A stretch of 64,000 nt of DNA from a plasmid (GCF_054482525.1 NZ_JBTHVG010000003.1), one strand, 5' to 3'; counted from the stretch's first letter, positions 3,429 through 61,306 are shown. Notes: a model not told the origin generated them from the sequence alone. Made by a program: numbers and translations.

Positions 3429-3444
3429 AGAAAGTTACTTTTCC
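3429..3444. promoter_or_regulatory. palindromic motif copy (agaaagttacttttcc)
   Basis: Read directly; 5' of gene 2983-3267. Confidence 0.4.
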
Positions 3445-3623
3445 GTAATAGTTAATTTCAGATCCTTCTTCCAGTTACGCTTCAGTATAAAACCGATACC
3501 CTCTAATTCAGCATCCTTCACGTTTAATACGCTTCACTTTAAGGCAGGGCTTTTCGGTTGATATGAATTCTTTTTCCGGTTGCTGGACATGGGTTTCATC
3601 CTGATAGTTAAAATTGCAGGCTA

Positions 3624-3926
3624 TCAGTCACCACCACCACCTCCTCCTCCTCCTCCTCCACCGCCACCATCACAACCACCAGCTATGCTATTTTCACCAT
3701 TACAATCACCTCCGAGGGGGTTCAAATGGCTGCTCCCCTGTAGATGGTGTCCTTGCCAGATCGAACCCGAACCAGCGCCTCCTGAGCGTCTTTGCTTGCC
3801 CTGAGGCAATTGTGCAGGCTCACCAGCACCGGCGGTCCCAAAAATGTCCCGGGCAATTTTATAAAGAAGGTAAAAAGGTACGCCCAGCATCATAAAAAAG
3901 ATTCCTGAAAATATTACACGTTCCAT
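3624..3926 (-). CDS. Gly-rich hypothetical protein with C-terminal poly-Gly tail
   Basis: ORF with hydrophobic N-terminus and terminal Gly run encoded by a (CCN)n tract. Confidence 0.3.
   Translation of the reverse strand: MERVIFSGIFFMMLGVPFYLLYKIARDIFGTAGAGEPAQLPQGKQRRSGGAGSGSIWQGHHLQGSSHLNPLGGDCNGENSIAGGCDGGGGGGGGGGGGGD
3628..3680. repeat. (CCN)n trinucleotide simple-sequence tract
   Basis: caccaccaccacctcctcctcctcctcctccaccgccacca read directly; codes poly-Gly on minus and poly-Pro on plus. Confidence 0.8.
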
Positions 3927-4358
3927 TGATGATCTCCTGTCTTGTGAGAGACCAGTTATATCAGGGTGATTCAGTATTTCCGTTTAGAAAAGAGTACTAA
4001 TTTGGCCCTGTTCGATCTTAATTTGCCATCCGGGAAAAAGTCATAGGGATAGGCCTGCCAGAGTCAATAACTTCCAGTGATCTGGAGGAGACCCCGGCTC
4101 TCTGAGCCCTCATGGATGGTACGGCTTTACCCCCTGTAAACAGATTCACGTTCCGCAGGACAAACATCGACTACTGACGTCTCATATTTGCTGACGCTAA
4201 TCCGACGTCTCATTGCCGTCTGCTTGTTTTCTTTAAAGGGTGTATTAGACGAATATCAAATCGGAATGGTAGGGGATGTGTGGGCACCATGCCCGGCCCT
4301 CTTTGAGCATCTGAGAGATTGGAGACCTAGCCGGGTAAGATAGCTACTTTCTTACGGG

Positions 4359-4727
4359 TTACCCTTCAAATCCAAAGACGAAACGGACGCTGCCGTTCTC
4401 CACGTGGAGACGCTTTACTTCTTCGACAAATTCCTGGATCACCTCTCCGGCGTTATCGGGTGGTATGGCTGACAAAATTTCTTCCGAAGTCAGCCATGAG
4501 TATGAATGTTCACCGAATAAATCATCATCTTCGGACGGTATATCATCAGGTAATCCGCGTAATGCGTGGATAAAAACTGCTGATGTGCTCGCCCTTTCAC
4601 GATCTACATCAAATCCGAGCCAGGCAAAGTGGAGATATGATCGGTCCCCTTTATAATTGCTTGATAAATTAATCCATTTACCAGGCTTTTCTTCCCTTTG
4701 AAATCGCCAGCAGATATCAACGCCCAT
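4359..4727 (-). CDS. hypothetical protein
   Basis: ORF, co-directional block. Confidence 0.3.
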   Translation of the reverse strand: MGVDICWRFQREEKPGKWINLSSNYKGDRSYLHFAWLGFDVDRERASTSAVFIHALRGLPDDIPSEDDDLFGEHSYSWLTSEEILSAIPPDNAGEVIQEFVEEVKRLHVENGSVRFVFGFEG

Positions 4728-4891
4728 TAAGAAACTCCATTACTATCGTTCGTATGAGATAACTATCATTTCAGAATACTATGACTTCTTCCCGTATAGA
4801 ACTAATCGCTCACGCCAACTGGGCGAAGCCAACCGGTTCCGCCACTTCGCTCATTGGTTTTTAGGCGTAAGCACTGAAGCCAGTCTCCATG

Positions 4892-5434
4892 CTAACTGGC
4901 GAGCCTGCGAAAGTCAGACTCGTTGTTATAAAGCGGCATATCGTAAGCGGTGTCTGAAATGAACATGCGGATCTGCTCAAGCGTCATGCCACAATGAAAA
5001 CGGTTTACGCTCACATTGGCCCGGGGGAAGTCAGCACAAAACGCATTCAAAACATTTTCATGGACAATGCCAATGTTGATCAACGCAGCTGGCCCGTTGT
5101 CACGGAAGGATACGACACGGAATCCCCCATACCAGCCTGAATGGGAGAAAAATGAAAATGCGCCGGATGCCAGACCATTAGACAGGTCATAGCGCAATTT
5201 CCCGCACAGAGACTGGCTGTCTTTGCTGTACACGCGATTAATGAAAATACCGGGACCAACTTCTACCGGCTGCTTGTTGCTTGCTAAACACGGAAAGCCC
5301 ACCAGCGAAACCTCCCTTTCTCCTGACCAGTTTACCTGATACCCGGCAGTGAGAAAGTCCGTCAGTTCTACGCCAGAAAGAGCATTAATGGCCGCGATAT
5401 CGGTAGTCAAAATATTTACGTTTTTCATATTCAT
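4892..5434 (-). CDS. hypothetical protein
   Basis: ORF, co-directional block. Confidence 0.35.
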   Translation of the reverse strand: MNMKNVNILTTDIAAINALSGVELTDFLTAGYQVNWSGEREVSLVGFPCLASNKQPVEVGPGIFINRVYSKDSQSLCGKLRYDLSNGLASGAFSFFSHSGWYGGFRVVSFRDNGPAALINIGIVHENVLNAFCADFPRANVSVNRFHCGMTLEQIRMFISDTAYDMPLYNNESDFRRLAS

Positions 5435-6857: not shown

Positions 6858-7139
6858 TCACTGCATACGCGAATAGTGGTTTGTATTCAGTTCTGCGTTT
6901 GCCTGCTTTTCCAGTGCTGTCATAACCCGGCGGAGCATCGCCAGAGCCTGAACAGGCGAGCTCCCAAACTGCACTTTCACTTCAGCCGTATCATGATCCT
7001 GAATCAGGTCGAGTATATTCACTTCGATCCCTGCCCCGTTTTCATCTTTTGCCGTGCACTGAATACTTACCCGGGTCACCGAATCCGTCAGGACTGGCAG
7101 TGGGTTAGTTTTGTCTACGTTGATAACAGCCTTCTTCAT
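6858..7139 (-). CDS. hypothetical protein
   Basis: ORF immediately downstream of a ParB-like gene. Confidence 0.3.
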   Translation of the reverse strand: MKKAVINVDKTNPLPVLTDSVTRVSIQCTAKDENGAGIEVNILDLIQDHDTAEVKVQFGSSPVQALAMLRRVMTALEKQANAELNTNHYSRMQ

Positions 7140-7204
7140 TGCCCTGTTTCCCCTTGTCCTGAAAAAGTTACCGACCCGTCCGGATGGAGGGGTCGGTCAG
7201 AAAA

Positions 7205-8389
7205 TCATGACTGTCCCTTGTTCATCTTATCAGCATGCTTACGCAGGTACTCTTTCAGGTCAGCATGAGCGTTGATGATATCGTTCATTTCATCATTGGT
7301 CAGAACAAGCGTGTAAGTATCAGTACTGACAGATTCACCTTCTTTAAGCTTGGCTTCTTCAGCAATACGTTCAAAAATCGGGATCGCGGTGTCTGCAATG
7401 ACGGTCACAGTCTTTTTGTTCAGAACGCTGGACATGGAAGGTGCTTTACCTGCCGGGTTCTGTTTAGGAGCGCTGTCCTTTGGAGCTGGAGCCGGTTCCT
7501 GTACCGGTGGCGTATCCAGCGTCTCCGTATTGCTTTCATCGTTCAGTTGATCCGGTACCGGGGTGTTATCGGTAGTATCATCTGCCGGTTGCTCAGCACC
7601 GATGTTTTCCGGAGTCTGCGGATCTGCCATGCGCTCTTCTACCTTGGCAGCTTTGACGAATTTCAGCGTGTTTTTCGTCGCCTTGCCATAGATGGAGATC
7701 GCTTTGTTGATGTTATCTACCGCATCCTCACCGCTGTACATATACTCGTCCAGTGCAACGTACATGCTCACCTGATCGCTCACAAGCATGGTCTGTAGTT
7801 CAGAAGGCAGGTCCAGTACGCGAACCATCTGGCGAAGATGCTGCTCTGATTTACCACGTTTTTTTGCCAGTTCCGCAAAGGTCTTAGGCTCTTCTTTATC
7901 TTCAACCAGACGCTTAATTGAAAGCGCTTCAGCTACGACAGACAGCGCCAGGTTGGAGTTGCCGGTCAGGGTGAAGAGTTCTGCTTTTGAAGCGCTACCG
8001 CGAAACTCTTCGCAGCGAATACGAGTAATGCGTTCACGCCCTTCTGCTTCCAGCTGGCGGTTTGCAATAGCGATGGAACGGATACGGCAAGCCCCCTGAC
8101 GCAGTACAGGTACGCCATTAACCATCTGAACAACGATAGGCGTCACGCTGAACGGGTCTTCCATGTAGGCATCGGCCAGGCTGTTCAGGTGTTCCACAAC
8201 GTGAGGCATTGAATAGTAGAGCTCGCCCATACCGGCCGTGCGGGTGTTAAAGCCTTCCTGCTCTACAACAACCGAAGGGTCAATGATAAGGCCGTTGCCT
8301 TTACGGGCACCGTTACCAGTGCGTTCCAGGTAACCACGAAGGCTGATTTCGTTGCTGTTGTTTTTTACTTCAGTTTCGATTGCGGACAT
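7205..8389 (-). CDS. ParB-like nuclease-domain protein (paralog 1)
   Basis: ParB/Srx-type N-terminal motif 'VLRQGACRIRS', HTH-like segment, acidic Pro-rich C-terminus; ~400-bp upstream leader with two palindromic motif copies. Confidence 0.6.
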   Translation of the reverse strand: MSAIETEVKNNSNEISLRGYLERTGNGARKGNGLIIDPSVVVEQEGFNTRTAGMGELYYSMPHVVEHLNSLADAYMEDPFSVTPIVVQMVNGVPVLRQGACRIRSIAIANRQLEAEGRERITRIRCEEFRGSASKAELFTLTGNSNLALSVVAEALSIKRLVEDKEEPKTFAELAKKRGKSEQHLRQMVRVLDLPSELQTMLVSDQVSMYVALDEYMYSGEDAVDNINKAISIYGKATKNTLKFVKAAKVEERMADPQTPENIGAEQPADDTTDNTPVPDQLNDESNTETLDTPPVQEPAPAPKDSAPKQNPAGKAPSMSSVLNKKTVTVIADTAIPIFERIAEEAKLKEGESVSTDTYTLVLTNDEMNDIINAHADLKEYLRKHADKMNKGQS

Positions 8390-8476
8390 TTTTGTTCTCT
8401 TTTTTGGTTGGTTGTTTAACTGCGCTACAACACAACAATACCAGGTTCGACATTTTTCCTAATAGGTTGCGGAGAA

Positions 8477-8493
8477 GAAAAAGTAACTTTTTT
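8477..8493. promoter_or_regulatory. palindromic motif copy (gaaaaagtaactttttt)
   Basis: Read directly; 5' of ParB-like gene 7205-8389. Confidence 0.4.
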
Positions 8494-8603
8494 TAAAAAT
8501 TTTCCTGAGGCAATACTACTCGATCCGTCCGTTTTAAATCTTCACAACAGTGGGCCGTTTTTACGTTTAAGCAAAATAACTGGTTCAGAAGGTGACTCAG
8601 AGA

Positions 8604-8619
8604 GAAAAGTTACTTTTCC
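8604..8619. promoter_or_regulatory. palindromic motif copy (gaaaagttacttttcc)
   Basis: Read directly; second copy in same leader; preceded by ggtgactcag as at 3421. Confidence 0.4.
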
Positions 8620-9490
8620 GGTTGTCTGGGCCAGTGATGGGAGAGTGGCAGGACAGGAATGGCTAAACCGGTGCGGGTCTCTTGTAAGTCGCAGGGGATT
8701 CAGGAGATATAGAGGTAAACTGGTACGTTCAGTTTTTGGATTGAGCCGGGCTTTTGGCCCGGGCTTAAGGAAGCAGAAATTTGAACGAACTGGCAGGTAA
8801 TGCTTTATGCCGCCGACAGCTGGCCGTCAGTGCTTTGCTGTTCTGGTTTGACAGTTGGGGGATAACCGGCAGTTAGCCGCTGGCATTCCGCATCACAGAA
8901 AGCCCTGAGGTTGCTGAAGACGGACTCCATGAAATCAGCATGAGCATACGAGTCTACAGGACGTGTCTTGTTATCTTTCATCTTGTTCTCCTCAATCATT
9001 ATTAAAACCAGCGGATTTAGTTTCTGGCGCTCCATCTGCTGACCGGCTTTCCCAGAGAGCAGCGATGTGTCGGGTTCTTTTTCTCATTTTATCGTTTTCA
9101 TCGGGCCCATCCGGGCGTATAAGAGACCGATTTGGCATGTTTAGGAAACGTACTGGCGTAATTAAAAGCTGAGGTTGGATTTGGAATAAAAGGATGCTTT
9201 TCCCGTTTGTCGGGTCTTTCGCCACCGCTGCACGATGATTCTGTCAGGCATTCTGCGCCCTCCCAGGCTGCACATCTGGAAACAAGCGTTGGGATGTTCC
9301 CTTCCCCTGCTCACCGTAGAAAGATCGGCAAGTCCCGACGGTCGTTCCGTACGAGCCGGGTCCAAATAATGAATAAATAAAACGCCGCTTCAATTGTATT
9401 GACAATAGAAGTCAGGAGGATCATAGTGTCATTCATGGTGCGGCTTTCACACCACCGCCCCGGCGGTACCGGGCAGAACTGGAGTACCTC

Positions 9491-16341: not shown

Positions 16342-16623
16342 TTACTCTTTTTCCTGCATAGCGGCTTTTTCAGCCCGGGTGGCCAGGCGAGCATTTCCGA
16401 AAGGTTCACGGACAAGCAGGGGCTTCTCCTTCTTCCAGCCCCTGATAGCCGTTTCTCCAAAACGACGTGGTGCATTGCCGTTCCAGCGAGCAATCACATG
16501 ATTATCATGAATTTCTATAATGACAACGGGGTGGACAATGACCGTTGTAATGGTGGTATTTCCCATTTTGGTACGGGTTACAGACCAAACCTGCATCCCG
16601 GATTCCAGCTGGCTGATTTTCAT
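16342..16623 (-). CDS. hypothetical protein
   Basis: ORF. Confidence 0.3.
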   Translation of the reverse strand: MKISQLESGMQVWSVTRTKMGNTTITTVIVHPVVIIEIHDNHVIARWNGNAPRRFGETAIRGWKKEKPLLVREPFGNARLATRAEKAAMQEKE

Positions 16624-18050: not shown

Positions 18051-18254
18051 TTAAATCTGTGAAGTATTTTTGAGAGATTTTTTGCGATCCAGATGCCGGG
18101 CAACAATGGTTCCGATAACAAGTAGCATGATGACCGCACTGAAGAAGGTGCTGTCAGGGACGCCCTGGAAAAAATCACTGAAACTGTAAACAATAAAAAT
18201 CAATGCGCAAAAATAGAAAACGATACGAACATAAGGGGTAAAAAACATTTTCAT
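18051..18254 (-). CDS. small membrane protein (hypothetical)
   Basis: ORF with two hydrophobic helices; palindromic motif ~140 bp upstream. Confidence 0.35.
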   Translation of the reverse strand: MKMFFTPYVRIVFYFCALIFIVYSFSDFFQGVPDSTFFSAVIMLLVIGTIVARHLDRKKSLKNTSQI

Positions 18255-18390: not shown

Positions 18391-18407
18391 GGTGAAAGTT
18401 ACTTTCC
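18391..18407. promoter_or_regulatory. palindromic motif copy (ggtgaaagttactttcc)
   Basis: Read directly; 5' of 18051-18254. Confidence 0.4.
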
Positions 18408-20129: not shown

Positions 20130-20450
20130 TTATGCTTCCTGACACCGTGTGAACGCAATCTTCGTCTGGATGCGTTCATAGATGGAAAACTGCCTTTCAA
20201 TGGAACCGGCATTAGACAGTAATTCATGAAGCTCAGCAGAGTCTGTATCGGGAACGATAGCTACAGAAACTCCATATCTCCGTCCAATTTTGATTAGGTG
20301 CGCAAGCTGTTCTTTTTCGGATTCTGTGAGCATTGCCAGATCTCTTCCGGACACCTGCTCTATAAACGAACCAAGGTTTTTGGGAAAAAAGGGTTCGGCA
20401 TCAGAGTTATGTGCTGGGCGCGTCTGCGGCTTATCGAAGCTATTGGGCAT
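20130..20450 (-). CDS. hypothetical protein
   Basis: ORF; palindromic motif ~150 bp upstream. Confidence 0.35.
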   Translation of the reverse strand: MPNSFDKPQTRPAHNSDAEPFFPKNLGSFIEQVSGRDLAMLTESEKEQLAHLIKIGRRYGVSVAIVPDTDSAELHELLSNAGSIERQFSIYERIQTKIAFTRCQEA

Positions 20451-20599
20451 GAATAGAACCTATACAGTTAGAGAACTGGAGAATGGATAAAGACTCTATG
20501 AAAATCAGTTGTGCTACACTCGAATGCTAATCAAGCTTTATGATGGCTTTAGTAGGGATGGCCGTCAACTTAAACCGATAAGAAGGGAGCCATTTATCG

Positions 20600-20614
20600 T
20601 TAAAGTAACTTTCC
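20600..20614. promoter_or_regulatory. palindromic motif copy (ttaaagtaactttcc)
   Basis: Read directly; 5' of 20130-20450. Confidence 0.4.
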
Positions 20615-20629
20615 CGGATGATGCTCTTT

Positions 20630-20857
20630 TTACGAAATAAGTTTCTCACACTCCTGTATAAGAGTCGCCCTGGAACGAGATCGACTGGCTTTGCTTAATG
20701 AAGAGCGTAGTTGATGTTCATCAACCCCATCAGCGATAAACTGACCGATTTTTGTTTCAAGCCGCTGCATTGCCTCGTAAAGCTTGGCATCCGCATTATT
20801 TTTAAGAAACCTCAGTATATAATCAGCAATAATTTGGACGGGAGTGAACTTATACAT
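20630..20857 (-). CDS. hypothetical small protein
   Basis: ORF. Confidence 0.3.
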   Translation of the reverse strand: MYKFTPVQIIADYILRFLKNNADAKLYEAMQRLETKIGQFIADGVDEHQLRSSLSKASRSRSRATLIQECEKLIS

Positions 20858-32045: not shown

Positions 32046-32423
32046 TTAACTAAAATTAATAGTCTCAATACTGCTCAAGAATTCTTTTTTTACGTCCGGT
32101 GTAAAAGGTATACGTTCAATGTATTTATAAAGTGTCGCAAATGTTTTGGGTTCAATGTTTCGGGAGATAATGTCATCAATCGGATCTTCGAACATATTGA
32201 TAAAGATATCGACATGCTGCTCTCCGCTTTCTGATGCCTTTGAAAGAAGACTGACCACTTCAATGTAGCGATTATCCTGCTCTGCAATGAACAACCAGTG
32301 CCCTTCGTTAAAGGCGGGTGCAGCGCTGTAGCGTTTAACAACAATTTCTGAAAGATTATATCCTGCCTGATTCAGCAGATTATTAAAGTTGAGTTGAGTT
32401 GAAATCACGTCTAACGTTTTCAT
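32046..32423 (-). CDS. hypothetical protein
   Basis: ORF; both upstream motifs present. Confidence 0.35.
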   Translation of the reverse strand: MKTLDVISTQLNFNNLLNQAGYNLSEIVVKRYSAAPAFNEGHWLFIAEQDNRYIEVVSLLSKASESGEQHVDIFINMFEDPIDDIISRNIEPKTFATLYKYIERIPFTPDVKKEFLSSIETINFS

Positions 32424-32469: not shown

Positions 32470-32487
32470 AGCTAATAACCTCCCAGC
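32470..32487 (-). promoter_or_regulatory. GGTTATTAGC-type box
   Basis: ctgggaggttattagctg ~50 nt 5' of start 32423. Confidence 0.35.
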
Positions 32488-32590
32488 AAATTTTCAGAAA
32501 AAAAACACCGCCTTTTATTTAAGATTGAACACATCCTTTTTAAATACCAACAATGATTATGAAACCACAATGTAAGTGAAGCGCCATTAT

Positions 32591-32606
32591 GGAAAAGTAA
32601 CTTTTG
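32591..32606. promoter_or_regulatory. palindromic motif copy (ggaaaagtaacttttg)
   Basis: Read directly; 5' of 32046-32423. Confidence 0.4.
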
Positions 32607-32830
32607 TGCAGCTCATAAATTTTATTTATTAGTTACGTTCCTTTGTCTTGTGGTCGAAGTTCATCAGGCGAGGCCTAAGAAGAATATGTGTGGTTTCAGC
32701 CAATGCGGTGATCGGGCATTATAATTTGGTCGGGCTATTATACGTGGGTAAAGGTAGTGGTAGGGAGAGGATCAGGTTAAATTGCATTTTCCCGGTTGCC
32801 TTCCCTGGCCTACCGGTTTCAGGTCAGACG

Positions 32831-41282: not shown

Positions 41283-43703
41283 ATGAAACATCTCGCTTTT
41301 ATTACTGCTGTAGCCGGACTCGGTATGTCTGTTCAGGCCCCAGCTCAGATATATGAATCGGCCTTTAAGGACACGAACGGTATTGAGATCCACGCCCCGT
41401 CTTCTCGTCTTATGCTTAATCCGGCATCACCGGTAACTTTGACACTTATTTCAGGTCTTGATCGTTTCGTTAATGTCAAAGTCACGAAAGACACTGGAAC
41501 TGTCATTCTTAATACTACGACTACACGGACGGGTGTATCAGACCGACTAACAGCTGCTGACGGTAGTGAGTTCTACGGCAAAAAAGTAACTTTGCCTGCT
41601 TTGGGTGAAGGCAAATTTGTCGTTCAGATAAACGTGTTAGATCTCAATCAGAAGCCTGTAGCGACCTATAACTATAACTGGCTAATTGATGTCACCCCTC
41701 CAGCGGCAAATGCTCTTACCGCTAATACTGGTTCTGGCTCTACCGCTGGTGACGTGTGGAAGCTTGGATTAGAGGCAACGGGGCAGTATGACTTCACCTC
41801 TTCGGGCGTAAGTGATGCAAATGGTATTGATAAGGGCCTAATATATATTTACAGGCAGGACGGTAGCCTCTACAGCACTACACAGATGCAGTATGACGTA
41901 TCCGGCCAAAAGATGTACCACACTTACTCTAAGAATTCAGTTAAGGGAACCGGAATACCAGACAGCAACCTGGATGAAGACTTTACTGCAAAAGTTGTTA
42001 TCTTCGATAACGCAGGTAATAGCCGAACGCTGCCAACTCAAAAATTTCGCTACGACAACACGCTGGGTGAGATGACACTGTGGGCCGTTCATGATCCAAA
42101 TACGTCTTCCAGCGTCGTACCCGGGGTTTCTAATTATCCGGCTTACAAAGCCGGTATGGTCGTTAACGAAAACCCTATTCGATTAGTCTACCGGATCCCA
42201 AAATCTAACTACCGTGCTTATTCAGAAGGTGGGCTTCAGTTCATCAATCAATATTCCGCCCCCAAAGAGATAGCTGTAGACAGCACTTATGCTTATGTTG
42301 AAATGACTCTTCCCTATGGCTCAATTAATGGGGATATGGCTCGTATGGCGAACTTTGGCCAGTGGGGAGGGTATTATCCGTCATACAGCCTCGTTCTAAA
42401 CCCATCTGCAAACCAAACGCCTGCATTTGCGGGTACCTGGGTAGATTTCCTCGATGATAAGGGGAACTGGGTTAAGTGGAAGGATTTTGAGAGTGTGGCT
42501 TCATCACGACTGCCAATTAAAATTTCCCGACTTCGTTTTAACGTTGAAGCCCGGCCCTTTGCACAGGAGATCGGCGGTAAGGCGACCTGCACCATTCCGG
42601 CAGGAAAAACCTCGTGTGAAGCGCCTGAGACGTTTGATATGGCCTTGGGTACCCAGGGCTACAATAGAATCCTTTACTTCGTTCGCAGCATCAGCAATCC
42701 CATTTTGCGGTCTGAGCAATGGATTATGACACGCTGGAACAATAAACAACTGCCGGTAATAAACTCGATATCATATGACGAGACTAACAAGCAGCTGGAT
42801 GTACTGGCGTCACTTGAAGGCGATGGTAACTGGTTCGACTCGGTCTCATTGAGGGAATTTTATCTTTCCGATAAGAACACCGGTACCCGGATGTCACCAA
42901 CAGGCGTAATCAAATCTCGTATCTCAGGTAACTACACGATTGCTTATGATTTATCCCGTCAGTCTGAAGGAAAATACAACGTTGAGGTCAACATCAGGGA
43001 CTTCTTCCAGAACCAGACCAATAAAACTTTCGGAGAAATTGCTCTGGATAACACTCCTCCGACAGTGGCCATAACATTCGACGGAAAGCCGGTAAAAGAC
43101 GATACGGTAGTGTACGGCCTGGAGAACCTCAGGATCGCTCTGGCAGATAATCTGACAACCCCGAGGATAACCCGTCTTCAGCTCGTAGGTGGCCCCACAG
43201 CTGATAACGTTGAGCTTACGTGGTCACCGGCAGGCAAAGATACATACATGCCTGAGTATCCGAGGCTGTTCCCAAATTTCGAACCATCTGAAAATTATTC
43301 AATTAGCGTAACAGTTGCCGATAGTCAGTCGAATACCAAAACCTATACTCAGAAGTTCAGTTATCTACCGAATAACCTTGTGCAGTTACATAATCTACGC
43401 ACATTGTCGGTCAGTTCACCTCTCAAAACGACAGATGGCGTACCACTTGCGTACCTGTCCACTAACGTTCTGCGTAAGACAAATGGAGAAATTGCTAAAG
43501 GGGTCCAGAACGCAACGCTGACTGTGCGGAAGGATGCAGCCTTCGGTATTAAATTTAATGGGGCACAGGCGGCTCCAGGCGAGTCAGTTGAGGTGCAAAT
43601 AGATATGGGCCAGGGGGATAATCTTCTGTTACCCGTTTATCCTTCCGAAAATGGGAAAGTTGGCACCTCAGAATTCATGATTCAGATCGACGAGTTGAAG
43701 TAA
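41283..43703 (+). CDS. large secreted protein, paralog B
   Basis: Signal peptide, 806 aa, conserved blocks shared with paralogs A and C; ATG with AGGGGA RBS. Confidence 0.6.
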   Translation: MKHLAFITAVAGLGMSVQAPAQIYESAFKDTNGIEIHAPSSRLMLNPASPVTLTLISGLDRFVNVKVTKDTGTVILNTTTTRTGVSDRLTAADGSEFYGKKVTLPALGEGKFVVQINVLDLNQKPVATYNYNWLIDVTPPAANALTANTGSGSTAGDVWKLGLEATGQYDFTSSGVSDANGIDKGLIYIYRQDGSLYSTTQMQYDVSGQKMYHTYSKNSVKGTGIPDSNLDEDFTAKVVIFDNAGNSRTLPTQKFRYDNTLGEMTLWAVHDPNTSSSVVPGVSNYPAYKAGMVVNENPIRLVYRIPKSNYRAYSEGGLQFINQYSAPKEIAVDSTYAYVEMTLPYGSINGDMARMANFGQWGGYYPSYSLVLNPSANQTPAFAGTWVDFLDDKGNWVKWKDFESVASSRLPIKISRLRFNVEARPFAQEIGGKATCTIPAGKTSCEAPETFDMALGTQGYNRILYFVRSISNPILRSEQWIMTRWNNKQLPVINSISYDETNKQLDVLASLEGDGNWFDSVSLREFYLSDKNTGTRMSPTGVIKSRISGNYTIAYDLSRQSEGKYNVEVNIRDFFQNQTNKTFGEIALDNTPPTVAITFDGKPVKDDTVVYGLENLRIALADNLTTPRITRLQLVGGPTADNVELTWSPAGKDTYMPEYPRLFPNFEPSENYSISVTVADSQSNTKTYTQKFSYLPNNLVQLHNLRTLSVSSPLKTTDGVPLAYLSTNVLRKTNGEIAKGVQNATLTVRKDAAFGIKFNGAQAAPGESVEVQIDMGQGDNLLLPVYPSENGKVGTSEFMIQIDELK

Positions 43704-43804: not shown

Positions 43805-43817
43805 GAAAAGTTACTTT
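43805..43817. promoter_or_regulatory. palindromic motif copy (gaaaagttacttt)
   Basis: Read directly; 3' of paralog B, next to iteron field. Confidence 0.3.
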
Positions 43818-43868: not shown

Positions 43869-44350
43869 ACGACAATGGGAGTGAGTGTCGAACCCCTTGA
43901 GTAAGGATACCTGGTAAATATACAGCCCCGGGGATTCTCTTCCTTCAACCGGGGATGACAACGGGAGTGAGTCCGGCAACTCACACCTGTTGTCACTTCT
44001 CTGACATATCGTCATACGAGCTTACTCAAGCGCATCCACAAAGATGGGATCGTTTTGAATCTAAACTGGTACTGGTTAGCCAGTCACTTGCATCTACTCC
44101 CCCGTCGATATTTAAGTGACAATTGTAGTGATCTGCAATACTGGTGTCTCAGAAACACTGACGACGGTAGAGACTCAATACCCTAACCCCTGACAACAGA
44201 AGTGAGCTTAGAGGTGTTACGCTGCTGTCACCTAATGCTTGGGAATTGCCTGACTCACAACCATTGTCATCCGGAGCTACTGATTAACGTTGAACCGCTG
44301 GACTTTAATGACAGTGGTAGTGATGGATAGGCTCATTTCCATTGTCGTCA
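43869..44350. repeat. iteron-like palindromic repeats (distal part of the repA downstream repeat field)
   Basis: At least five units with gacaaYRRgagtga half-sites, the same core as the 46076-47320 array. Confidence 0.55.
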
Positions 44351-44354
44351 TTTT

Positions 44355-46055
44355 ATCGGAGAACCACGGCAGCCTGGCGGCTGCAAATTGAAAACCGCCC
44401 CGGTTCGTCCTGTTGTTGCCGCACGCCCCGCAGAATATGTATGCTCTGAGGACCTGTTTTATTAAGGACTCATCCCCTTATGTTGACCCGCAAAAGTATC
44501 GATACAGTTCTGCTCTCTGTTGGTGCTGAGAAGCTCTCACAACGAGAATGGGACTGGATGAAAATGCTCAAACCCATGGACCCACCACCTGCGATGGTGA
44601 CGACCTCCATCCTGAAGCGCCGTGGCGATACAGCAGCCCTTACCCTGCTACAGGATACCGGGGTTTAATCCATCCTCATGTTGTCCGGTTTTACTCCCCG
44701 CCCTCTGAAACGTCTGTTCACAGCCAACCAGTGCTGGACGTCCTTCCTGGATGCGGGCGGTCTGCGCGATATCGAGGTTGAAGCCGTCACCAAAATGCTG
44801 GCCTGCGGCACACGGATACTGGGTGTAAAAGAGTTCGGGTGTGATAACCCGGACTGTCAGCACGTAAAGTACCTGACCAACTCATGCGGCAGCCGTGCCT
44901 GCCCGTCCTGCGGAAAGAAGGCCACAGACCTGTGGACAGCAACACAGCTGAATCGTCTTCCTGACTGCGACTGGGTACATCTGGTCTTCACCCTGCCGGA
45001 CACGCTGTGGCCGGTGTTCGAAAGCAACCGCTGGCTGCTGAATGACGTGTGCCGTCTGGCGGTGGAGAATCTGCTGTATGCCGCCCGAAAACGGGGGCTG
45101 GAACCCGGTATCTTCTGCGCCATCCACACGTATGGCCGTCGTCTCAACTGGCATCCGCATGTACATGTGTCTGTAACCTGTGGAGGTCTGAATAAGCATG
45201 GTCAGTGGAAAAAGCTGAGCTTCCTGAAAGACGCGATGCGTTCACGGTGGATGTGGAATATGCGGCAGCTGCTTCTGAAAGCGTGGTCAGAGGGGATGGC
45301 AATGCCGGAGTCGTTGTCACATATCACGACGGAATCACAGTGGAGAAGCCTGGTGCTGAAATCCGGCGGAAAATACTGGCATGTGTACATGTCGAAGAAG
45401 ACAGCCGGAGGGCGGAATACGGCACGCTACCTGGGTCGTTATCTGAAGAAGCCACCAATAGCGGCTTCCCGACTGGCTCATTACAACGGAGGGGCAAGCC
45501 TGAGCTTCCGTTACCTGGACCACAAAACGGGAGAAACGGCGACGGAAACGCTGACACAGCGTGAGCTGGTCGCGAGGCTGAAACAGCACATCCCGGAGAA
45601 GTTTTTTAAGATGGTGAGGTACTTCGGGTTCCTTGCCAACCGTGTGTGTGGAGAGAAGCTGCCGCAGGTGTACCGTGCACTGGGGATGGATAAACCGGAA
45701 CCAGTGGCGAAAGTGTGCTATGCACAAATGGTGAAACAGTTCCTGAGTCGTGACCCGTTCGAATGCGTGCTGTGTGGCTGCCGGATGGTATACCGCCGGG
45801 CCATTGCGGGGCTGAATGTATCAGGGCTGAAGAAAAACGCGCGGGATATCAGTCTACTGAGGTATATGCCGGCCTGACACAGGCTAAGTGTGCCCGGGAA
45901 TCGGTGAAAGTATAAAAAACAGCCTGTTACGGTATAAAAATCGACCATACAGAGAGGGAAACCACCGGAGTGGTGGGAAAAGCAGAAAGGCTCACGTGGC
46001 ATAAGGCGTGGACAATGGTATCGACTGGTTTTTCAATTTCCTATACGTCAAGCCT
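44355..46055 (+). mobile_element. IS91-family insertion sequence (IS1294-like); ends approximate
   Basis: Rolling-circle transposase gene plus small upstream ORF; no inverted repeats; right end near '...tttttcaatttcctatacgtcaag'. Interrupts the iteron field. Confidence 0.6.
44678..45877 (+). CDS. IS91-family rolling-circle (HUH/Y2) transposase
   Basis: N-terminal Zn-binding 'CQHVKYLTNSCGSRACPSCG', HUH-like 'WHPHVHV', C-terminal Tyr-containing region. Confidence 0.75.
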   Translation: MLSGFTPRPLKRLFTANQCWTSFLDAGGLRDIEVEAVTKMLACGTRILGVKEFGCDNPDCQHVKYLTNSCGSRACPSCGKKATDLWTATQLNRLPDCDWVHLVFTLPDTLWPVFESNRWLLNDVCRLAVENLLYAARKRGLEPGIFCAIHTYGRRLNWHPHVHVSVTCGGLNKHGQWKKLSFLKDAMRSRWMWNMRQLLLKAWSEGMAMPESLSHITTESQWRSLVLKSGGKYWHVYMSKKTAGGRNTARYLGRYLKKPPIAASRLAHYNGGASLSFRYLDHKTGETATETLTQRELVARLKQHIPEKFFKMVRYFGFLANRVCGEKLPQVYRALGMDKPEPVAKVCYAQMVKQFLSRDPFECVLCGCRMVYRRAIAGLNVSGLKKNARDISLLRYMPA

Positions 46056-49584: not shown

Positions 49585-52041
49585 TTATTTTAATTCTTCA
49601 ATGTTAATCATGAACTCAGATCTGCCAGTAAGGCCGGATACAGCAGGGAAAATAGGAAAGCTACGGCTGTCCCCGAGCCCCAAATCCAGTTGAAGCTCTT
49701 TGCTTTCACCTGGCATCGCAGAAACGCCATTTACAGTCACGCCGAATGCAGCGTCCTTACGGACAGTAAGCACTGCGTCCTGAAGCCCTGTAGCGATTGA
49801 ACCATCCTTTTTACGCAGCTGGCTGGCATACAGAACAGCCAGAGCAGTATTGTCAGATGTTTTGAGAGAAGCATTGACAGCTAAGGTTTTCAGATTCTCT
49901 AGCCTGACGAGATTGTTTGGAAGGTAGTTAAATTCGACTGAGCTTTCTTTAACGTTGTTCATCTCATCTTTGGCCTGAACTGTGAGAGTGTATGTTTCGC
50001 CTTCATTAAGAGACGGAAAGATCTTGGGATAATTAGGTGCATACAGGTTGTTTCCCAGATTCACCCAAGACAATTCCACCGCATCAGAAACAGGGCCACC
50101 GCGAAGAGTCATACGGCTTAAGGATGGTTTAGTTAGAGCATCGGTGAGCTGTATACGGACGTTCTCCAGCCCATATACTGTTACGTTTTTGCTGATCGGT
50201 TTTCCTTCGTAGCTAATACTTACAGATGGTGCTGTATTATCAACGACAACTGTTTGATAAGGGAGGTTACCGGTATTGTTGAATGTATCTTGGGCATTAA
50301 TCACCACGTTATAACTGCCTTCTGGTACCTCTTTCATGTTGAACTCATACGTGTAGTTCCCAGACGCCATATTTCTACCTGTTTGTTTGCCGGTTACGCT
50401 TATTTCTGCGTTGTTACGGTTTTTATCTGACAACCAAACTCGATTTACATAAACATGGTCGAAATATGAACCATCTCCAGGTTGATTCACGTAAACCTGG
50501 AGAATGTTGGTGGTTTCATTGTAATCAAATCCAGTGACGGAGGGACCCAGTGTATGCCAGGCTATATTCTCCCATATAGGGGCAAAGAAGGTTGCTTCGG
50601 TGGTTGACCTTACTTCATAGCCACTATGAAGATAACCGGTAGTGCCATTTATAATATCCTGGGGCAAAGAGACGGTACAGGTTGTTGAGCCAGCTGGAAT
50701 ACTGCATGTTGCTCCGCCAGTGATTTTTTGATCATATGGCCTGGCCTGTACATTGAATCGGATATTAGTAAGTTTTATAGGCATATCAGATGCCTTGAAC
50801 AGGTTCCAGTTTACGCTGTTGAACCATGTTCCATCAGCCTTTTGTCGTTCTATGGGTGAACTTCCCCAAGCCGGACTCTTTACAGAGGCAGGATCCCAGT
50901 TGAGCCAGCTGGCATACTGACCAAGATCTCCTCCAGACCATTGATATGTATTCACAGGTCTATAGTAGTTTCCATCTAAGGCACCCTGTGGCAGCTTAAC
51001 TTCCACGTAGACATAGGTGGCATCTTCGGAAAGGACCTGTACTCCGCCATAGTTATTGGTAATGCTCATGCCACCATTTCGATATGGCTTCCAGTTAGTT
51101 CTTGGGATACGTATAACCAACTTGTAGGGGTTTTCCAGCACTGTAAGGCCTCGTTTAAACGGGACGTATCCCGAAGAAATGCCGGGTACAACACTGGTGC
51201 TTACACGTGAGTCATGAACTGCAAATGGCGTAAATTCTCCCATTTGATCGTCATATAAAAACCGCTGGGGAGGAATGTTAAGCGTATTTCCTGCCAGGTC
51301 CGTAACGATGAAATTGAAGGTGAATTCTTCATCAAGATCACTTGAGGGCATGCCAGCCTGGGTGTTCATATCTTTAATCCACGGATAGACCGCACGTTTA
51401 TTGGCTGTGTCATAACTCAGGTTATTGTCGGAGACCACAGAACCATTACTTCGTTTAATGACAAGACGGATCTTGTCAATTCCACTAGCATCCTCAATAC
51501 CGTCTGCAAATATAGAAAACTGGCCACTACCGCCTCGGCCCAACTCCCAAAGTGGCCCAGAAAGTACCATGTCGTAACCTGCGTTTTGACTCGGATAAAT
51601 ACTCTTATAGCGTGGAGGAGTTGTATCAACGATGAAATGATAAGTAGATGTGCTCACTACAGTCTGGCGAATATCCAGAGTTTCATTGACTACAGTAAAG
51701 GTCCCTTCTCCGAGCGCCGGTAGAACCATATCCTTTCCATAGTATTCTGTTCCATCGGCAGCAACGATACGATCTGCAACGCTCGTTTTGGTCGAGACGG
51801 AGGAATACATAACCTTTTTATCGCTGTCTCGTGTGACCGTCACTCGCTCGTACCGATCAAGACCCGATATCAAGTTCAGAGTCAAAACACCAGCGGGATT
51901 AAGATATGTTTGTGTTGCAGGTTTGATATTCCGAACAGCCTTATTGGTATCTGTAAATGAGTAGCTAAATACCTGAGCATGTGCCGAAGATACAGTAGCA
52001 AGGGCAGTTGCAACCATGCAGCCAATTAGAGTTTTACGCAT
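49585..52041 (-). CDS. large secreted protein, paralog C
   Basis: Signal peptide 'MRKTLIGCMVATALATVSSAHA', 818 aa, blocks shared with A and B; ATG with GGAG RBS; two palindromic motif copies 150-235 bp upstream. Confidence 0.6.
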   Translation of the reverse strand: MRKTLIGCMVATALATVSSAHAQVFSYSFTDTNKAVRNIKPATQTYLNPAGVLTLNLISGLDRYERVTVTRDSDKKVMYSSVSTKTSVADRIVAADGTEYYGKDMVLPALGEGTFTVVNETLDIRQTVVSTSTYHFIVDTTPPRYKSIYPSQNAGYDMVLSGPLWELGRGGSGQFSIFADGIEDASGIDKIRLVIKRSNGSVVSDNNLSYDTANKRAVYPWIKDMNTQAGMPSSDLDEEFTFNFIVTDLAGNTLNIPPQRFLYDDQMGEFTPFAVHDSRVSTSVVPGISSGYVPFKRGLTVLENPYKLVIRIPRTNWKPYRNGGMSITNNYGGVQVLSEDATYVYVEVKLPQGALDGNYYRPVNTYQWSGGDLGQYASWLNWDPASVKSPAWGSSPIERQKADGTWFNSVNWNLFKASDMPIKLTNIRFNVQARPYDQKITGGATCSIPAGSTTCTVSLPQDIINGTTGYLHSGYEVRSTTEATFFAPIWENIAWHTLGPSVTGFDYNETTNILQVYVNQPGDGSYFDHVYVNRVWLSDKNRNNAEISVTGKQTGRNMASGNYTYEFNMKEVPEGSYNVVINAQDTFNNTGNLPYQTVVVDNTAPSVSISYEGKPISKNVTVYGLENVRIQLTDALTKPSLSRMTLRGGPVSDAVELSWVNLGNNLYAPNYPKIFPSLNEGETYTLTVQAKDEMNNVKESSVEFNYLPNNLVRLENLKTLAVNASLKTSDNTALAVLYASQLRKKDGSIATGLQDAVLTVRKDAAFGVTVNGVSAMPGESKELQLDLGLGDSRSFPIFPAVSGLTGRSEFMINIEELK

Positions 52042-52194: not shown

Positions 52195-52211
52195 GCAAAA
52201 GTAACTTTTTG
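52195..52211. promoter_or_regulatory. palindromic motif copy (gcaaaagtaactttttg)
   Basis: Read directly; 5' of paralog C. Confidence 0.4.
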
Positions 52212-52259: not shown

Positions 52260-52275
52260 ATAAAAGTAACTTTTG
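52260..52275. promoter_or_regulatory. palindromic motif copy (ataaaagtaacttttg)
   Basis: Read directly; second copy 5' of paralog C. Confidence 0.4.
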
Positions 52276-55153: not shown

Positions 55154-55157
55154 AAAA

Positions 55158-58094: not shown

Positions 58095-59258
58095 TTATTC
58101 TGCGTCCGGCTGTGGGTCAGTATCCTGATCGGTCTCTTCCCCTGCCTTCTTAGCATTTTTTTTACGTGGGTATTTTGGCTTCTCACCATTAAGTTTTGCC
58201 TGACGATTCTCCGCACGGCGAAGCTGCTTGTTCTCTGATTCTGTGATCTCTTTTGAAAGATTTCTCAACATCTCCAGAGTACTGCGGTTCAACGTAATGT
58301 TGATTTCTTCGTCAGCACTTGAATCTGTCAGCTCCGGCAATTCAATATCCCCCAGTTTCTGTAATAAGCTGGTGGTGATGAGTTTGACGCCTTCTACGGC
58401 TTTTGTGGCAATAACCGGCGGAATCCGTGCTGGCTTGAAGTCTGAAGGTCTGACTCGTACCTGACCATGTTGGGTTTTTTTCACCGTGATGCCATTCGCA
58501 TCGGCCTGCTCAAGTTCTGCGATCATCTTCTTGATACGTGAAATTGCTTCTGTTTCGCCGAGCTCATCGATCAGTGAAAGCACGTTAACATACGAAATAG
58601 CGTCAGCATGAATCCATTTCTTGATAACAACAGAACAGGTTGTCAGGCGGATAAGAGAACTGATGGTCGTCGGGCTTTTATTTTCACGTTGAGCAATTCG
58701 TTCGAGTGACCAGCCAGCAAGAGAATGTAGGCGACGATAGGACTCGCCAAGCGCAACAGGAGAAAGCGCAAGACCACGGTTACCATCAATGGTCGCGAGC
58801 TCACAGCCAATTTCATCTTCTTTAATCTCAACGCAAAGGATTGTGATGTCATGATCTTCATCACATGCCATCATTGCGGCTTTTAAACGGCAGTGCCCCT
58901 GGCGAACAAAAGGTACCCCATCAATGACACGTACTCGGATAGGGTCTACATAGTCACCTCGAATGTAGGCATTCTTGATGTTGTAGATGTGTTCTTCAAC
59001 CTCAGGGAGCTTATAGTAATCGTCACCCATTCCCATTTCGCGGGAGTTGAAGCCTGGCGTGACCTGAATTACTGAAGGGTGGATAGCCCATGCTTTCTGG
59101 TCACTTACTTCAGTACAAAGTTCAGGGTTTGCATCACGGAACTGTTTAAGCCCAGTGACGTAACGGCCTGTGCCAGTAACTACTGAAAAGGCAACATGGG
59201 CCGTTTTAAAGACCTTGTCATTAGCTTGCTGTGTAGGTTCTGTCAGTAAAACACTCAT
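58095..59258 (-). CDS. ParB-like nuclease-domain protein (paralog 2)
   Basis: 'VPFVRQGHCRLKAA' ParB/Srx motif, HTH-like segment, basic/acidic C-terminal tail. Confidence 0.6.
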   Translation of the reverse strand: MSVLLTEPTQQANDKVFKTAHVAFSVVTGTGRYVTGLKQFRDANPELCTEVSDQKAWAIHPSVIQVTPGFNSREMGMGDDYYKLPEVEEHIYNIKNAYIRGDYVDPIRVRVIDGVPFVRQGHCRLKAAMMACDEDHDITILCVEIKEDEIGCELATIDGNRGLALSPVALGESYRRLHSLAGWSLERIAQRENKSPTTISSLIRLTTCSVVIKKWIHADAISYVNVLSLIDELGETEAISRIKKMIAELEQADANGITVKKTQHGQVRVRPSDFKPARIPPVIATKAVEGVKLITTSLLQKLGDIELPELTDSSADEEINITLNRSTLEMLRNLSKEITESENKQLRRAENRQAKLNGEKPKYPRKKNAKKAGEETDQDTDPQPDAE

Positions 59259-59535
59259 AGGGGCTCCGTTACATTTTTCTGCTTACTTTCTGCGTAGCGG
59301 GGATACTACCGAAAAAAAAATTCATAATTTTTCGCAAAAAAGGTACTTTTTGAGCCTATTCTGATTTTTTACAAAAAAAGGTGGCTCCCCATTACTTGTG
59401 ATGGCATAAAAATCGCTTCATAAACAAATACATAAATCCAAAACATAAAGTTCAGGTATAAGTGAGGAAAAATCTTATAAATCCGAAATGCTGAAAGTCA
59501 AAACTGTGCGTCTTAAACAACTTTTTTTTGCTCCC

Positions 59536-59550
59536 TAAGTTATTAGTTAA
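59536..59550 (+). promoter_or_regulatory. box variant (ctaagttattagtta) upstream of Dam-like gene
   Basis: ~60-75 nt 5' of the Dam-family gene start. Confidence 0.3.
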
Positions 59551-59606
59551 AGCCCGTGGTTAGGTACGATACCAGCACCTAAATTTCTCTCTCAGGTATA
59601 GACACT

Positions 59607-60440
59607 TTGACTCGACATCTCAGACACATGCCGATAATCAAATGGGCTGGTGGAAAAACGAAACTGATGCCTTTCATCAGCCATCACTACCCACACGATC
59701 ATAGTTGCCGGTGGGTAGAACCCTTTATAGGCGGTGGTGCCGTTTTTCTGAACATGTTTGCACAAAATGCATTGCTTGCAGATAGCAATCCAGACTTGAT
59801 CAACCTATACAGGACTATTCAAAGACAGAAAACTAACTTTATAAATCAGGTCCAAAACTTGGCGGATAAAACCTTTGTCGAAAAGGACTACTATGAGATG
59901 AGGGACCGTTTCAACAAAACCTGTATTTCTGGTCAATCGCTTCAAAGAGCGGCTTTGTTTTACTCCCTGAATCGCCTGGGCTATAACGGTATGTGCCGCT
60001 ATAACTCAGAAAGAATCTATTCAGTGCCGTGGGGGAAACATACAGAACTGAAGCTTGACCTCAATAAAATAGACTACCTTTCATTTCGTCTTTCAGGTAT
60101 TGAACTGATCACCGCTGGTTTTGAGGAGACTCTGGCCGCAACCGGTGAAGGAGATCAGATTTACTGTGATCCGCCATATGACAAAACAAGCAAAACTAGT
60201 TTTGTCAGTTACGATGGTAAACCGTTCAGCCAAAGCGACCACGTGCTGTTAGCAAATATGCTCGTTGACGCTCACAGAAAAGGCGCTGCTGTTGCGATAT
60301 CAAATAGCCTGACATCATTCACTTTGGGCCTCTATGAAGAGCGTGGATTCGTCATACACAGACTCAGCGCTTACCGATCCGTAGGAAGTAAGCCGAATAC
60401 ACGGAAAACGGAAACAGAAATACTGGCCGTGCTGAAATAG
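59607..60440 (+). CDS. Dam-family N6-adenine DNA methyltransferase
   Basis: 'IIKWAGGK' N-terminal motif and 'DPPY' motif IV; probable true start at internal Met (~59628). Confidence 0.7.
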   Translation: MTRHLRHMPIIKWAGGKTKLMPFISHHYPHDHSCRWVEPFIGGGAVFLNMFAQNALLADSNPDLINLYRTIQRQKTNFINQVQNLADKTFVEKDYYEMRDRFNKTCISGQSLQRAALFYSLNRLGYNGMCRYNSERIYSVPWGKHTELKLDLNKIDYLSFRLSGIELITAGFEETLAATGEGDQIYCDPPYDKTSKTSFVSYDGKPFSQSDHVLLANMLVDAHRKGAAVAISNSLTSFTLGLYEERGFVIHRLSAYRSVGSKPNTRKTETEILAVLK

Positions 60441-60448
60441 AGTAAATT

Positions 60449-61306
60449 CTAATCAACTAGGCTAATCCATTCCTCAAAAGTTAATACCTCAGGGTAAGTT
60501 CGTTGAACATAAGGTATAAACTGAAGCTCTTCTATTCTCCGGTCGCCCCTCTTTCCTTCGCAAATAAATGAAATGAGTCCTTGCTGAGAAAGGCCAGTAA
60601 GGACGCTCATAAGTCTTATATTTAGACTTTTAAGCTGTAAGTCGTTATTAATGTCCTCCACTTTATGAGAGCTCTGGCCTGAACGTTTAAGATACTCGTA
60701 AACCATGAAATTCGAATTTCGTCGTTTTAACAATTTTTCGGTTATGCATTCCTGAATGAAGTCGCCAAGAGCATCTAAAAGCGGACTGAGAACTACCGGG
60801 AAAGTTAATGTGTAACTTTGAGAAGTTTTAGACAAAGTGAATGAGTTTAGAAAGCTAAAGTTTAGTCTCTTTTTTGAATATGGAACATAAGCGACAAGAG
60901 TAGTCGACATAACAGTAAGTAAAGCTTCAAGATGGTTCACTGTTATTAAAGTGGTTTTATCTGTATTTCTAAGATTATGGAAATCAATAAACGCTACTCT
61001 TGAACGGCTAAGCCAATCTTGTACTTTAATGTCGATAGAAAATTGCGAGATATGATTTGAACATTCATTTTGGGTGATAGGGCATGCAGACGAAAGATGG
61101 TTATGGATTATCATGCATAGCACAAAAAAAGGAAAACGGCAGGCTGTGGGGCATTGAAAACCGGTTAAAGAAAGCTTAGACGTTTCATATGCGCTTACCG
61201 GAAAAGTAACTTTTCTTAACGTTGGCTTTGACGATGTTCTTGCATTTTTACAAATGAAACCGAGACCCAGATCATTGTGCATTTTAAAGTCCATCTCCAT
61301 CATCAC
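60449..61306 (-). CDS. hypothetical protein (true start probably internal)
   Basis: Low-GC ORF; a palindromic motif copy lies inside the annotated N-terminus. Confidence 0.3.
   Translation of the reverse strand: MMMEMDFKMHNDLGLGFICKNARTSSKPTLRKVTFPVSAYETSKLSLTGFQCPTACRFPFFVLCMIIHNHLSSACPITQNECSNHISQFSIDIKVQDWLSRSRVAFIDFHNLRNTDKTTLITVNHLEALLTVMSTTLVAYVPYSKKRLNFSFLNSFTLSKTSQSYTLTFPVVLSPLLDALGDFIQECITEKLLKRRNSNFMVYEYLKRSGQSSHKVEDINNDLQLKSLNIRLMSVLTGLSQQGLISFICEGKRGDRRIEELQFIPYVQRTYPEVLTFEEWISLVD
61197..61216. promoter_or_regulatory. palindromic motif copy (ccggaaaagtaacttttctt)
   Basis: Read directly; inside annotated 5' end of 60449-61306. Confidence 0.35.

Follow-up and report, generated by a model that had tools for sequence, protein, structure and literature searches.

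On the IncP-1 plasmid RK2, KorB acts through 12 OB operators, which consist of an identical 13-bp palindrome, TTTAGCSGCTAAA, with one central base pair. Some of these operators are located at promoters, some lie 80 to 200 bp away, and others are found far from a promoter or within genes. KorB is encoded together with the ParA-type protein IncC and has a second role in partition. VirB of the Shigella virulence plasmid, which is temperature regulated, uses virS sites, 7-1-7 inverted repeats present at a variable distance upstream of H-NS-silenced promoters. The AcaCD/SetCD boxes of IncC plasmids and SXT/R391 are longer and degenerate and are placed directly against the -35 element. Here we describe a short palindrome, AAAGTWACTTT, which is dispersed over a stretch of 64,000 nucleotides of plasmid DNA (NZ_JBTHVG010000003.1, assembly GCF_054482525.1; the whole stretch is called the window below) and over the backbone of related plasmids. 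We consider it to be another case of a known class, the dispersed palindromic network of operators or loading sites of a plasmid global regulator, and by analogy its layout most resembles that of KorB and the OB operators.

The window belongs to an IncHI2 plasmid. For its first 20 kb, the stretch that was compared, it shares 100% identity with Salmonella and Escherichia coli plasmids of the IncHI2 group, including the mcr-1 plasmid pHSHLJ1-MCR1. According to the annotation of pHSHLJ1-MCR1 and of the IncHI2 prototype R478, the window lies just downstream of the relaxase operon and corresponds to the part of R478 that begins at about 199 kb and extends to the record's end. Plasmids of the IncHI1 and IncHI2 groups are carriers of multidrug resistance in typhoid Salmonella; in E. 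coli and Salmonella they also harbor mcr-1 and further genes for last-line resistance.

AAAGTWACTTT is firmly established as a cis element. For its function, we give about an even chance to the reading that it is the predicted site of a plasmid-encoded dimeric protein that binds double-stranded DNA, most likely the orphan protein A with a ParB/KorB/Noc fold that is encoded in the window, possibly together with its paralogs. The approximately 47 copies would then constitute a network across the backbone of IncHI-type plasmids. A compact dyad whose arms are strict and whose center is permissive is what a dimer would recognize on duplex DNA. Copies upstream of genes may be operators, or loading sites that control nearby promoters at a variable distance, and copies within genes may be further loading or organizing sites.

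An 11-bp palindrome in the window

The preliminary description of this DNA had reported a 15-bp core with perfect dyad symmetry at 12 or more places. The motif is indeed real and occurs far beyond chance, but the exact 15-mer, GAAAAGTWACTTTTC, is present only twice in the window (at 8604 and 61201, versus 0.00 expected); with up to two mismatches, 11 copies are found versus 0.14 expected. The invariant unit is the 11-mer AAAGTWACTTT, whose two forms, AAAGTAACTTT and AAAGTTACTTT, are each other's reverse complement. It occurs 13 times exactly, whereas an order-3 Markov model predicts 0.07 copies, and 18 times with at most one mismatch, compared to 2.02 in shuffled sequences. These expectations exclude chance or base composition as the source of the motif. 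A position table of 46 IncHI2 copies showed that the information content is at background level beyond ±7 bp from the center. The asymmetric flanks described previously (ggtga on one side, ttccNgg on the other) did not hold up, as the table contains only a weak symmetric extension, with A at -6 in 65% and T at +6 in 61% of the copies, followed by G/C. The extended consensus is gaAAAGTWACTTTtc, two half-sites flanking one central base pair.

Ten of the 13 exact copies in the window are located 96 to 227 bp upstream of the start of a minus-strand gene, in agreement with the distance of 70 to 250 bp given in the preliminary description. Gene A (7205 to 8389, minus strand) has two of them, both putative operators: a proximal copy at 8480 to 8490, 96 bp upstream, and a distal copy at 8606 to 8616, 222 bp upstream, which has the full 15-mer dyad. 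Two copies 65 bp apart also precede the gene for an immunoglobulin-like (Ig-like) protein at 49585-52041(-), at 52198 to 52208 (162 bp upstream; in the IncHI1 plasmid R27 the site is at -188 from the ortholog, position 48737) and at 52263 to 52273 (227 bp upstream). Single copies are found at 3431 to 3441, 169 bp upstream of the gene at 2983-3267(-) (R27 counterpart at 97181, 174 bp upstream of the ortholog); at 18395 to 18405, 152 bp upstream of a small open reading frame (ORF) at 18051-18254(-); at 20602 to 20612, 157 bp upstream of the gene at 20130-20450(-); at 28382 to 28392, 212 bp upstream of the gene at 27849-28175(-); and at 32594 to 32604, 176 bp upstream of the gene at 32046-32423(-), with a syntenic match at R27 67018. 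The copy at 23333 to 23343 lies between a gene resembling 3'-phosphoadenosine 5'-phosphosulfate (PAPS) reductase and the gene at 22961-23200(-), 138 bp upstream of the latter, and the R27 site at 72184 occupies the same place after the PAPS-reductase gene. The remaining three copies are at 41583 to 41593, within a second Ig-like gene at 41283-43703(+) and kept in the homologous sequence of R27 (56937); at 43807 to 43817, about 100 bp beyond the end of that plus-strand gene (R27 counterpart at 55582); and at 61203 to 61213, a full 15-mer dyad in the 5' part of the coding sequence at 60449-61282(-), at the same place in the R27 ortholog (43240).

Two imperfect sites can be added. The conserved variant AAAGGTACTTT at 59339 to 59349 lies 81 bp upstream of the ParB-like gene B, and the one-mismatch site AAAGTAGCTTT at 24604 to 24614 is in the PAPS-reductase-like gene; at the corresponding position of the R27 ortholog (70907), the site is exact. 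Three degenerate copies had been proposed before. The one at 59339 is genuine and is kept upstream of the R27 ortholog. No match is present near 57861, and the copy at 35140 has two mismatches and is of uncertain value.

Distribution over the IncHI2 backbone

The whole R478 plasmid contains 47 exact copies of AAAGTWACTTT versus 0.40 expected, and its two orientations take the top two places by count among the plasmid's 11-mers. One-mismatch copies are also in excess (30 versus 9.8 expected), with changes mainly at the three central positions; the tolerated central variants in R478 are AAAGTSACTTT, AAAGCTACTTT, and AAAGCAACTTT. The span from 3429 to 61216 originally assigned to the motif is thus too narrow, as the motif covers the whole plasmid backbone, and so is its restriction to the leaders of accessory genes, because copies are found in tra operons, in the origin of transfer (oriT) intergenic region, and deep in coding sequences.

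Placement was scored for 46 copies, those of R478 from 1 to 200 kb plus those of the window. Intergenic copies are threefold enriched (27 of 46, compared to 8.7 ± 2.6 in the null distribution), and 29 of 46 lie between -350 and +60 of a gene start (null, 15.5 ± 3.1). The upstream distances range from -59 to -301. The other 19 copies (about 40%) are in coding sequences, still about a hundredfold above chance, and there they occupy all three reading frames (K-V-T-L/F, E/K-S-N-F, and K-L-L), which indicates selection on DNA and not on the peptide and excludes a repeat at the peptide level. Relative to the genes, the motif may be on either strand.

The median spacing between R478 copies is about 3.8 kb. 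Transfer genes with copies in or before them are htdO, htdT, rsp, trhF, trhU, trhN, trhI, trhH, and traD. The divergent parM/Z-operon region also has copies, as does the DNA before terE, and two more lie in the trhR-mobI intergenic region, which should hold oriT. The two largest copy-free gaps, of 33 kb each, coincide with the resistance islands (IS26, cat, aph, mer, sil, and pco). One exact copy, at R478 115078, is within a tnsA-like gene of a Tn7-like element and is the sole copy found inside an apparent transposon.

These data bear directly on the possibility that the motif is not a site on duplex DNA, i.e., that it is the core of a repeated promoter module like the conserved upstream repeats (CUP) of IncN plasmids, a promoter active on single-stranded DNA (ssDNA) like Frpo, or an RNA element in 5' leaders. 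In favor of this possibility, several copies occupy large gaps between genes, upstream of genes that share one direction, and the region is rich in establishment-type genes (methyltransferases, ParB-like proteins, hok, and relE). A CUP-type module, in which segments of at least 100 bp conserve promoter and operator together, is excluded by the background-level conservation beyond ±7 bp and by the absence of a fixed -10 offset: when 42 oriented sites from five plasmids were scanned for -10 elements with a position weight matrix, no offset was preferred, and no single offset had a -10-like hexamer in even 5 of them. An Frpo/ssi promoter, in which a long imperfect hairpin in the transferred strand rebuilds the -35/-10 duplex, is not supported either: the flanks are not conserved, and ssDNA folds of three motif-bearing gaps were no better than those of shuffled sequences (z of -0.15 for 3268-3623, -1.57 for 8390-8804, and +0.60 for 32424-32830). 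In RNA, the dyad could pair into no more than a weak hairpin of about 5 bp, rich in A-U; an RNA site would not need dyad symmetry, which suits a dimer on duplex DNA. The many copies in coding sequences, on either strand and in all frames, also argue against any element of this kind. This reading, parts of which the preliminary description had proposed, is largely refuted, and we regard it as very improbable. Because the flanks are not conserved, the spacing to a -10 element is not fixed, and the ssDNA folds are unremarkable, the motif is better described as a compact protein site. The other proposal made at the outset, a shared operator for one plasmid-encoded regulator, fits the compact dyad, the enrichment in intergenic DNA and at gene starts, and the conservation of positions between IncHI1 and IncHI2.

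Conservation in R27 and distant relatives

In R27, 24 exact copies are present in the first 100 kb. Most of the window copies have a syntenic counterpart there, although the intergenic DNA around them shares an identity of only about 70% or allows no alignment. For the distal gene A site, located at -223 in R27, only about 24 bp around the motif are alignable. More distant IncHI-type contigs, metagenomic ones included, were found via remote protein relatives. A Klebsiella plasmid of the MOBH/MPF_F type, whose proteins are about 35% identical, has 17 exact copies in 40 kb, and AAAGTWACTTT is its top k-mer. Exact copies are also present in 21 kb each of a Yersinia intermedia contig (7), a Klebsiella grimontii contig (8), and two more distant IncHI-type relatives (6 and 11). 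An unchanged 11-mer is shared by plasmids with proteins that are down to 25 to 35% identity. Dense clusters also occur: directly downstream of repB, a Klebsiella plasmid has four copies within 860 bp (1162-2017), and one IncHI-type contig, L023, has five copies, two of them central variants, in the 470 bp (7088-7558) upstream of the trhA transfer operon.

Such constancy would also fit a different binder, either a very conserved enterobacterial host factor or another conserved plasmid protein, such as a Tus-like protein or a small regulator of the helix-turn-helix (HTH) or ribbon-helix-helix type, and many IncHI backbone genes have no known function. The distribution within one plasmid counts against such a binder, as the copies avoid the transposon and resistance DNA, which points to long-term coevolution with backbone functions. 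To our knowledge, AAAGTWACTTT matches no operator consensus of enterobacterial regulators, which also counts against a host factor. A Tus-like protein is a poor candidate because 47 Ter-type sites would make no sense; moreover, the Ter sites bound by Tus are asymmetric. We therefore hold a binder of this sort to be rather unlikely.

A different high-copy repeat, of the CTGGCGATTAAGGGGGTTAAATGCCA type, was seen in k-mer counts only, with about 20 copies in R27 (somewhere in the first 50 kb) and about 9 in R478 1 to 200 kb plus the window. It is probably located in the unannotated parA-trhC gap (R27 approximately 25.3 to 28.4 kb; R478 approximately 11.6 to 15.4 kb) and may represent the Par1 centromere or incompatibility repeats. 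The true parAB genes are elsewhere on the plasmid, beside a different repeat array. A canonical parS centromere beside parAB was rejected as an identity for AAAGTWACTTT, since the copies of the latter are dispersed and the array adjoining parAB has a different sequence.

ParB-like proteins A, B, and G

The window encodes three orphan ParB-like proteins on its minus strand: A (394 amino acids), the prime candidate binder; B (58095 to 59258; 387 amino acids), the gene for which adjoins a Dam-family methyltransferase gene; and G (62469 to 63524; 351 amino acids). Paralogs B and G were recognized by NCBIfam parB_part/Noc matches and by alignment. The pairwise identity of the three proteins is 22 to 26%, and they share GFNxR and RQGxCR motifs where the canonical ParB boxes would be. 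Protein A has a Pfam HTH_ParB match and can be aligned to the DNA-binding domain of Caulobacter ParB, and the profile of its family matches ParB, Noc, and KorB in the DNA-binding domain as well as in the N-terminal one. The AlphaFold model (predicted local distance difference test [pLDDT] score, 82.7) has the two-domain body of ParB, a disordered linker, and a C-terminal helical domain. The top Foldseek matches of this model are ParB, the KorB-KorA complex, and Noc, with a template modeling score of 0.63 to 0.66 on the target for the KorB-KorA co-crystal 8qa9.

The gene for protein A carries the motif upstream in every lineage sampled, with 2 to 6 copies. Two sites each are found in IncHI2 (-96/-222), R27 (-105/-223), Yersinia (-109/-210), and contig L023 (-119/-296), and six are found in the two Klebsiella plasmids. 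Upstream of gene B, the conserved variant AAAGTACCTTT is located at -81 in IncHI2 and at -95 in R27 (R27 45096), and B-type loci from metagenomes have exact copies. The link between protein A and the motif is circumstantial but consistent, and it is drawn from genes and their upstream regions.

Several observations weigh against protein A as the binder. Its Box II is RQG[H/A]CRxR, so that only the last Arg of GERR is kept from the canonical GERRxRA, and in Box III only the Asn of the canonical ENxxR is kept, with Glu and Arg missing. With such a noncanonical nucleotide pocket, a sliding clamp driven by cytidine triphosphate should not be assumed. No ParA gene adjoins A, B, or G at the three loci, unlike the situation for KorB. 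The search for relatives of protein A gave 31 with a word-indexed search, one locus in species-representative genomes, and 594 with an exhaustive profile search; across the eight contexts that were examined, no covariation between protein and motif was found, as every IncHI-type context keeps the identical 11-mer and the two non-IncHI contexts are too short to be informative. The sites upstream of the ParB-like genes are also compatible with these genes being members of the regulon of another protein. Finally, paired or clustered sites are not unique to the ParB-like genes, since they are also found at the Ig-like gene, in the oriT region, downstream of repB, and upstream of trhA in contig L023.

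Upstream of gene A, a -35/-10-like pair, TTAGGA-N16-TATTGT, is present at 8435-8462 on the minus strand, 17 bp downstream of the proximal site. This pair is kept almost base for base in R27 while the neighboring DNA has diverged, and it is therefore likely the gene A promoter. A simple promoter scan of the region upstream of gene A detected no promoter. The IncHI2 plasmid pSI115-1 (NZ_CP050763.1) is typed as nonmobilizable and has no relaxase, and tblastn with protein A detects paralog B alone; this plasmid could thus serve as a naturally occurring deletion variant with respect to gene A.

Relation to the HtdA-TrhR/TrhY circuit

Transfer of IncHI plasmids and the expression of their genes are controlled by H-NS/Hha and temperature (PMC7366339). 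In R27, TrhR/TrhY activate four tra operons, and HtdA reportedly exerts its effect on TrhR/TrhY at the protein level (PMC7366339). In an htdA mutant of R27, 139 of the 181 genes that were expressed showed increased expression, comprising tra genes and most non-tra backbone genes and not the transposon genes (PMC7366339). The motif could therefore be the DNA box of this conjugation circuit, bound by the activators TrhR/TrhY or by the counteracting repressor HtdA, which would explain the derepression of most backbone genes in the htdA mutant. The backbone-only distribution of the motif indeed equals the footprint of the htdA regulon, and copies are present upstream of the Z operon (-161), the H operon (-192), and trhF/trhP (-190), as well as in the trhR-mobI intergenic region. 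The paper names no cis-acting DNA site for the HtdA-TrhR/TrhY circuit, nor a binding site for these proteins (PMC7366339), which leaves room for such a box.

The fit with individual operons is poor, however. The upstream regions of the TrhR/TrhY-dependent F operon and of htdA (AN) have no copy even when two mismatches are allowed, the nearest exact copy to the AC operon is about 1 kb off, and the HtdA-independent R operon does have a copy, at -82. A promoter-proximal activator would be expected to have a -10 element at a fixed offset, and none is found, whereas about 40% of the copies are within genes. The reported action of HtdA at the protein level also argues against a DNA box for this repressor, and TrhR, TrhY, and HtdA have no recognizable DNA-binding domain, although this is weak evidence. 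A second motif common to the four TrhR/TrhY-dependent promoter regions was not found among 14-mers with up to three mismatches. Comparison of TrhY/TrhR with FlhC/FlhD gave no Pfam or PDB profile similarity, and the AlphaFold model of TrhY is poor (pLDDT, 47). Taken together, we do not expect the motif to be a TrhR/TrhY or HtdA box, but the overlap with the regulon gives this explanation a small chance of being correct.

Comparison with described systems and possible wider role

If protein A is the binder, the similarity to KorB and its operators would extend from the DNA to the protein. In both cases a short palindrome built around one central base pair is repeated in identical form over the plasmid, at promoters and also far off or in genes, and the regulator, modeled with a ParB fold in the case of candidate A, has sites at its own gene. 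The differences are that about 47 copies are present here versus 12 on RK2, that the candidate proteins are orphans whereas KorB has the IncC partner and a role in partition, that Boxes II and III of protein A are noncanonical, that no KorA-like partner was identified, and that the binder here is a predicted one. VirB is also an orphan, plasmid-borne ParB-family protein, with an inverted repeat that has one central base pair and lies at a variable upstream distance (-59 to -301 in our case), and IncHI transfer shares the control by H-NS/Hha and temperature (PMC7366339). The two sequences are unrelated, though, and VirB sites are few and found only upstream of promoters, whereas a good share of the IncHI copies is intragenic.

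Tens of copies of a strict palindrome of 12 to 16 bp across the genes and intergenic DNA of one replicon are also typical of Noc/NBS, MatP/matS, and SlmA/SBS. Among these, Noc is a ParB paralog, in line with the profile and fold matches of protein A. In contrast to the IncHI copies, which are threefold enriched in intergenic DNA, their sites are not enriched at gene starts, and these proteins organize chromosomes or time cell division. The AcaCD/SetCD systems, whose plasmids and elements are MOBH relaxase relatives, are similar in that one master regulator has boxes before many operons for transfer and for unknown functions; they differ from the exact 11-mer described here, which has no fixed promoter offset and many intragenic copies. 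HerB (YfjB) is an orphan ParB-like protein that has both a nucleotide-binding domain and an HTH; its gene is located among those for establishment in the F plasmid's leading region, and the protein binds the host chromosome without a recognizable motif (PMC13370423). The IncHI case is different, as a strict motif is present on the plasmid itself.

A wider form of the idea that protein A binds the motif is more tentative, and we consider it possible but doubtful. The plasmids may have an unrecognized KorB/VirB/Noc-like system in which one or more orphan ParB-fold proteins load at the approximately 47 sites and spread plasmid-wide. With about one site per 4 to 6 kb of backbone, and with a noncanonical nucleotide pocket, such spreading could determine how nearly all backbone genes are expressed, as a global state tied to temperature and HtdA, or it could organize or tether the plasmid. 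The invariant 11-mer would then mark the "self" backbone apart from the acquired resistance islands.

The motif string was not found in the literature that was searched, on IncHI regulation, the IncHI backbone, and ParB, a search that did not cover the 2014 TrhR/TrhY study. Both the motif and its binder seem to be undescribed so far. A palindrome present in 47 copies and invariant in the family provides a concrete handle on the coregulation of IncHI backbone genes, and the three uncharacterized ParB-fold proteins are candidate global regulators. If protein A or its paralogs do bind the motif, long-range control of the KorB/VirB type by ParB-family proteins would extend to a second major family of resistance plasmids, and the motif would be a sequence signature for IncHI-type backbone DNA.

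Other features of the window

Minus-strand genes fill the window from about 2.5 to 38 kb, except for the stretch from 9.5 to 13.4 kb, which has four plus-strand genes and an IS421 transposase. Most genes between about 2.5 and 38 kb are small and of unknown function; among them are methyltransferase genes, hok/relE toxin genes, the PAPS-reductase-like gene, and Ig-like genes. The PAPS-reductase-like protein (23450-25834, minus strand; 794 amino acids) has a PAPS-reductase/DndC-like domain at residues 60 to 364, approximately, followed by a long unassigned C-terminal part, and its gene is kept in R27 (69684-72059). We presume that this protein resembles IbrA, the partner of the ParB-like IbrB. 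A 93-amino-acid ORF at 16342-16623(-) received the PLSDB/RGI label "Brucella suis mprF, defensin resistance," which looks spurious for this hypothetical protein.

The plasmid pHSHLJ1-MCR1 has an ISApl1 insertion at 20394-21368 that is absent from the window at about position 20390, where the target gene (20130-20450) is intact. The only G+C-rich stretch of the window (53.5%) is located at 44000-46000, and it is probably an insertion into the backbone, since a gene for an IS91-family transposase lies within it (44678-45877, plus strand).

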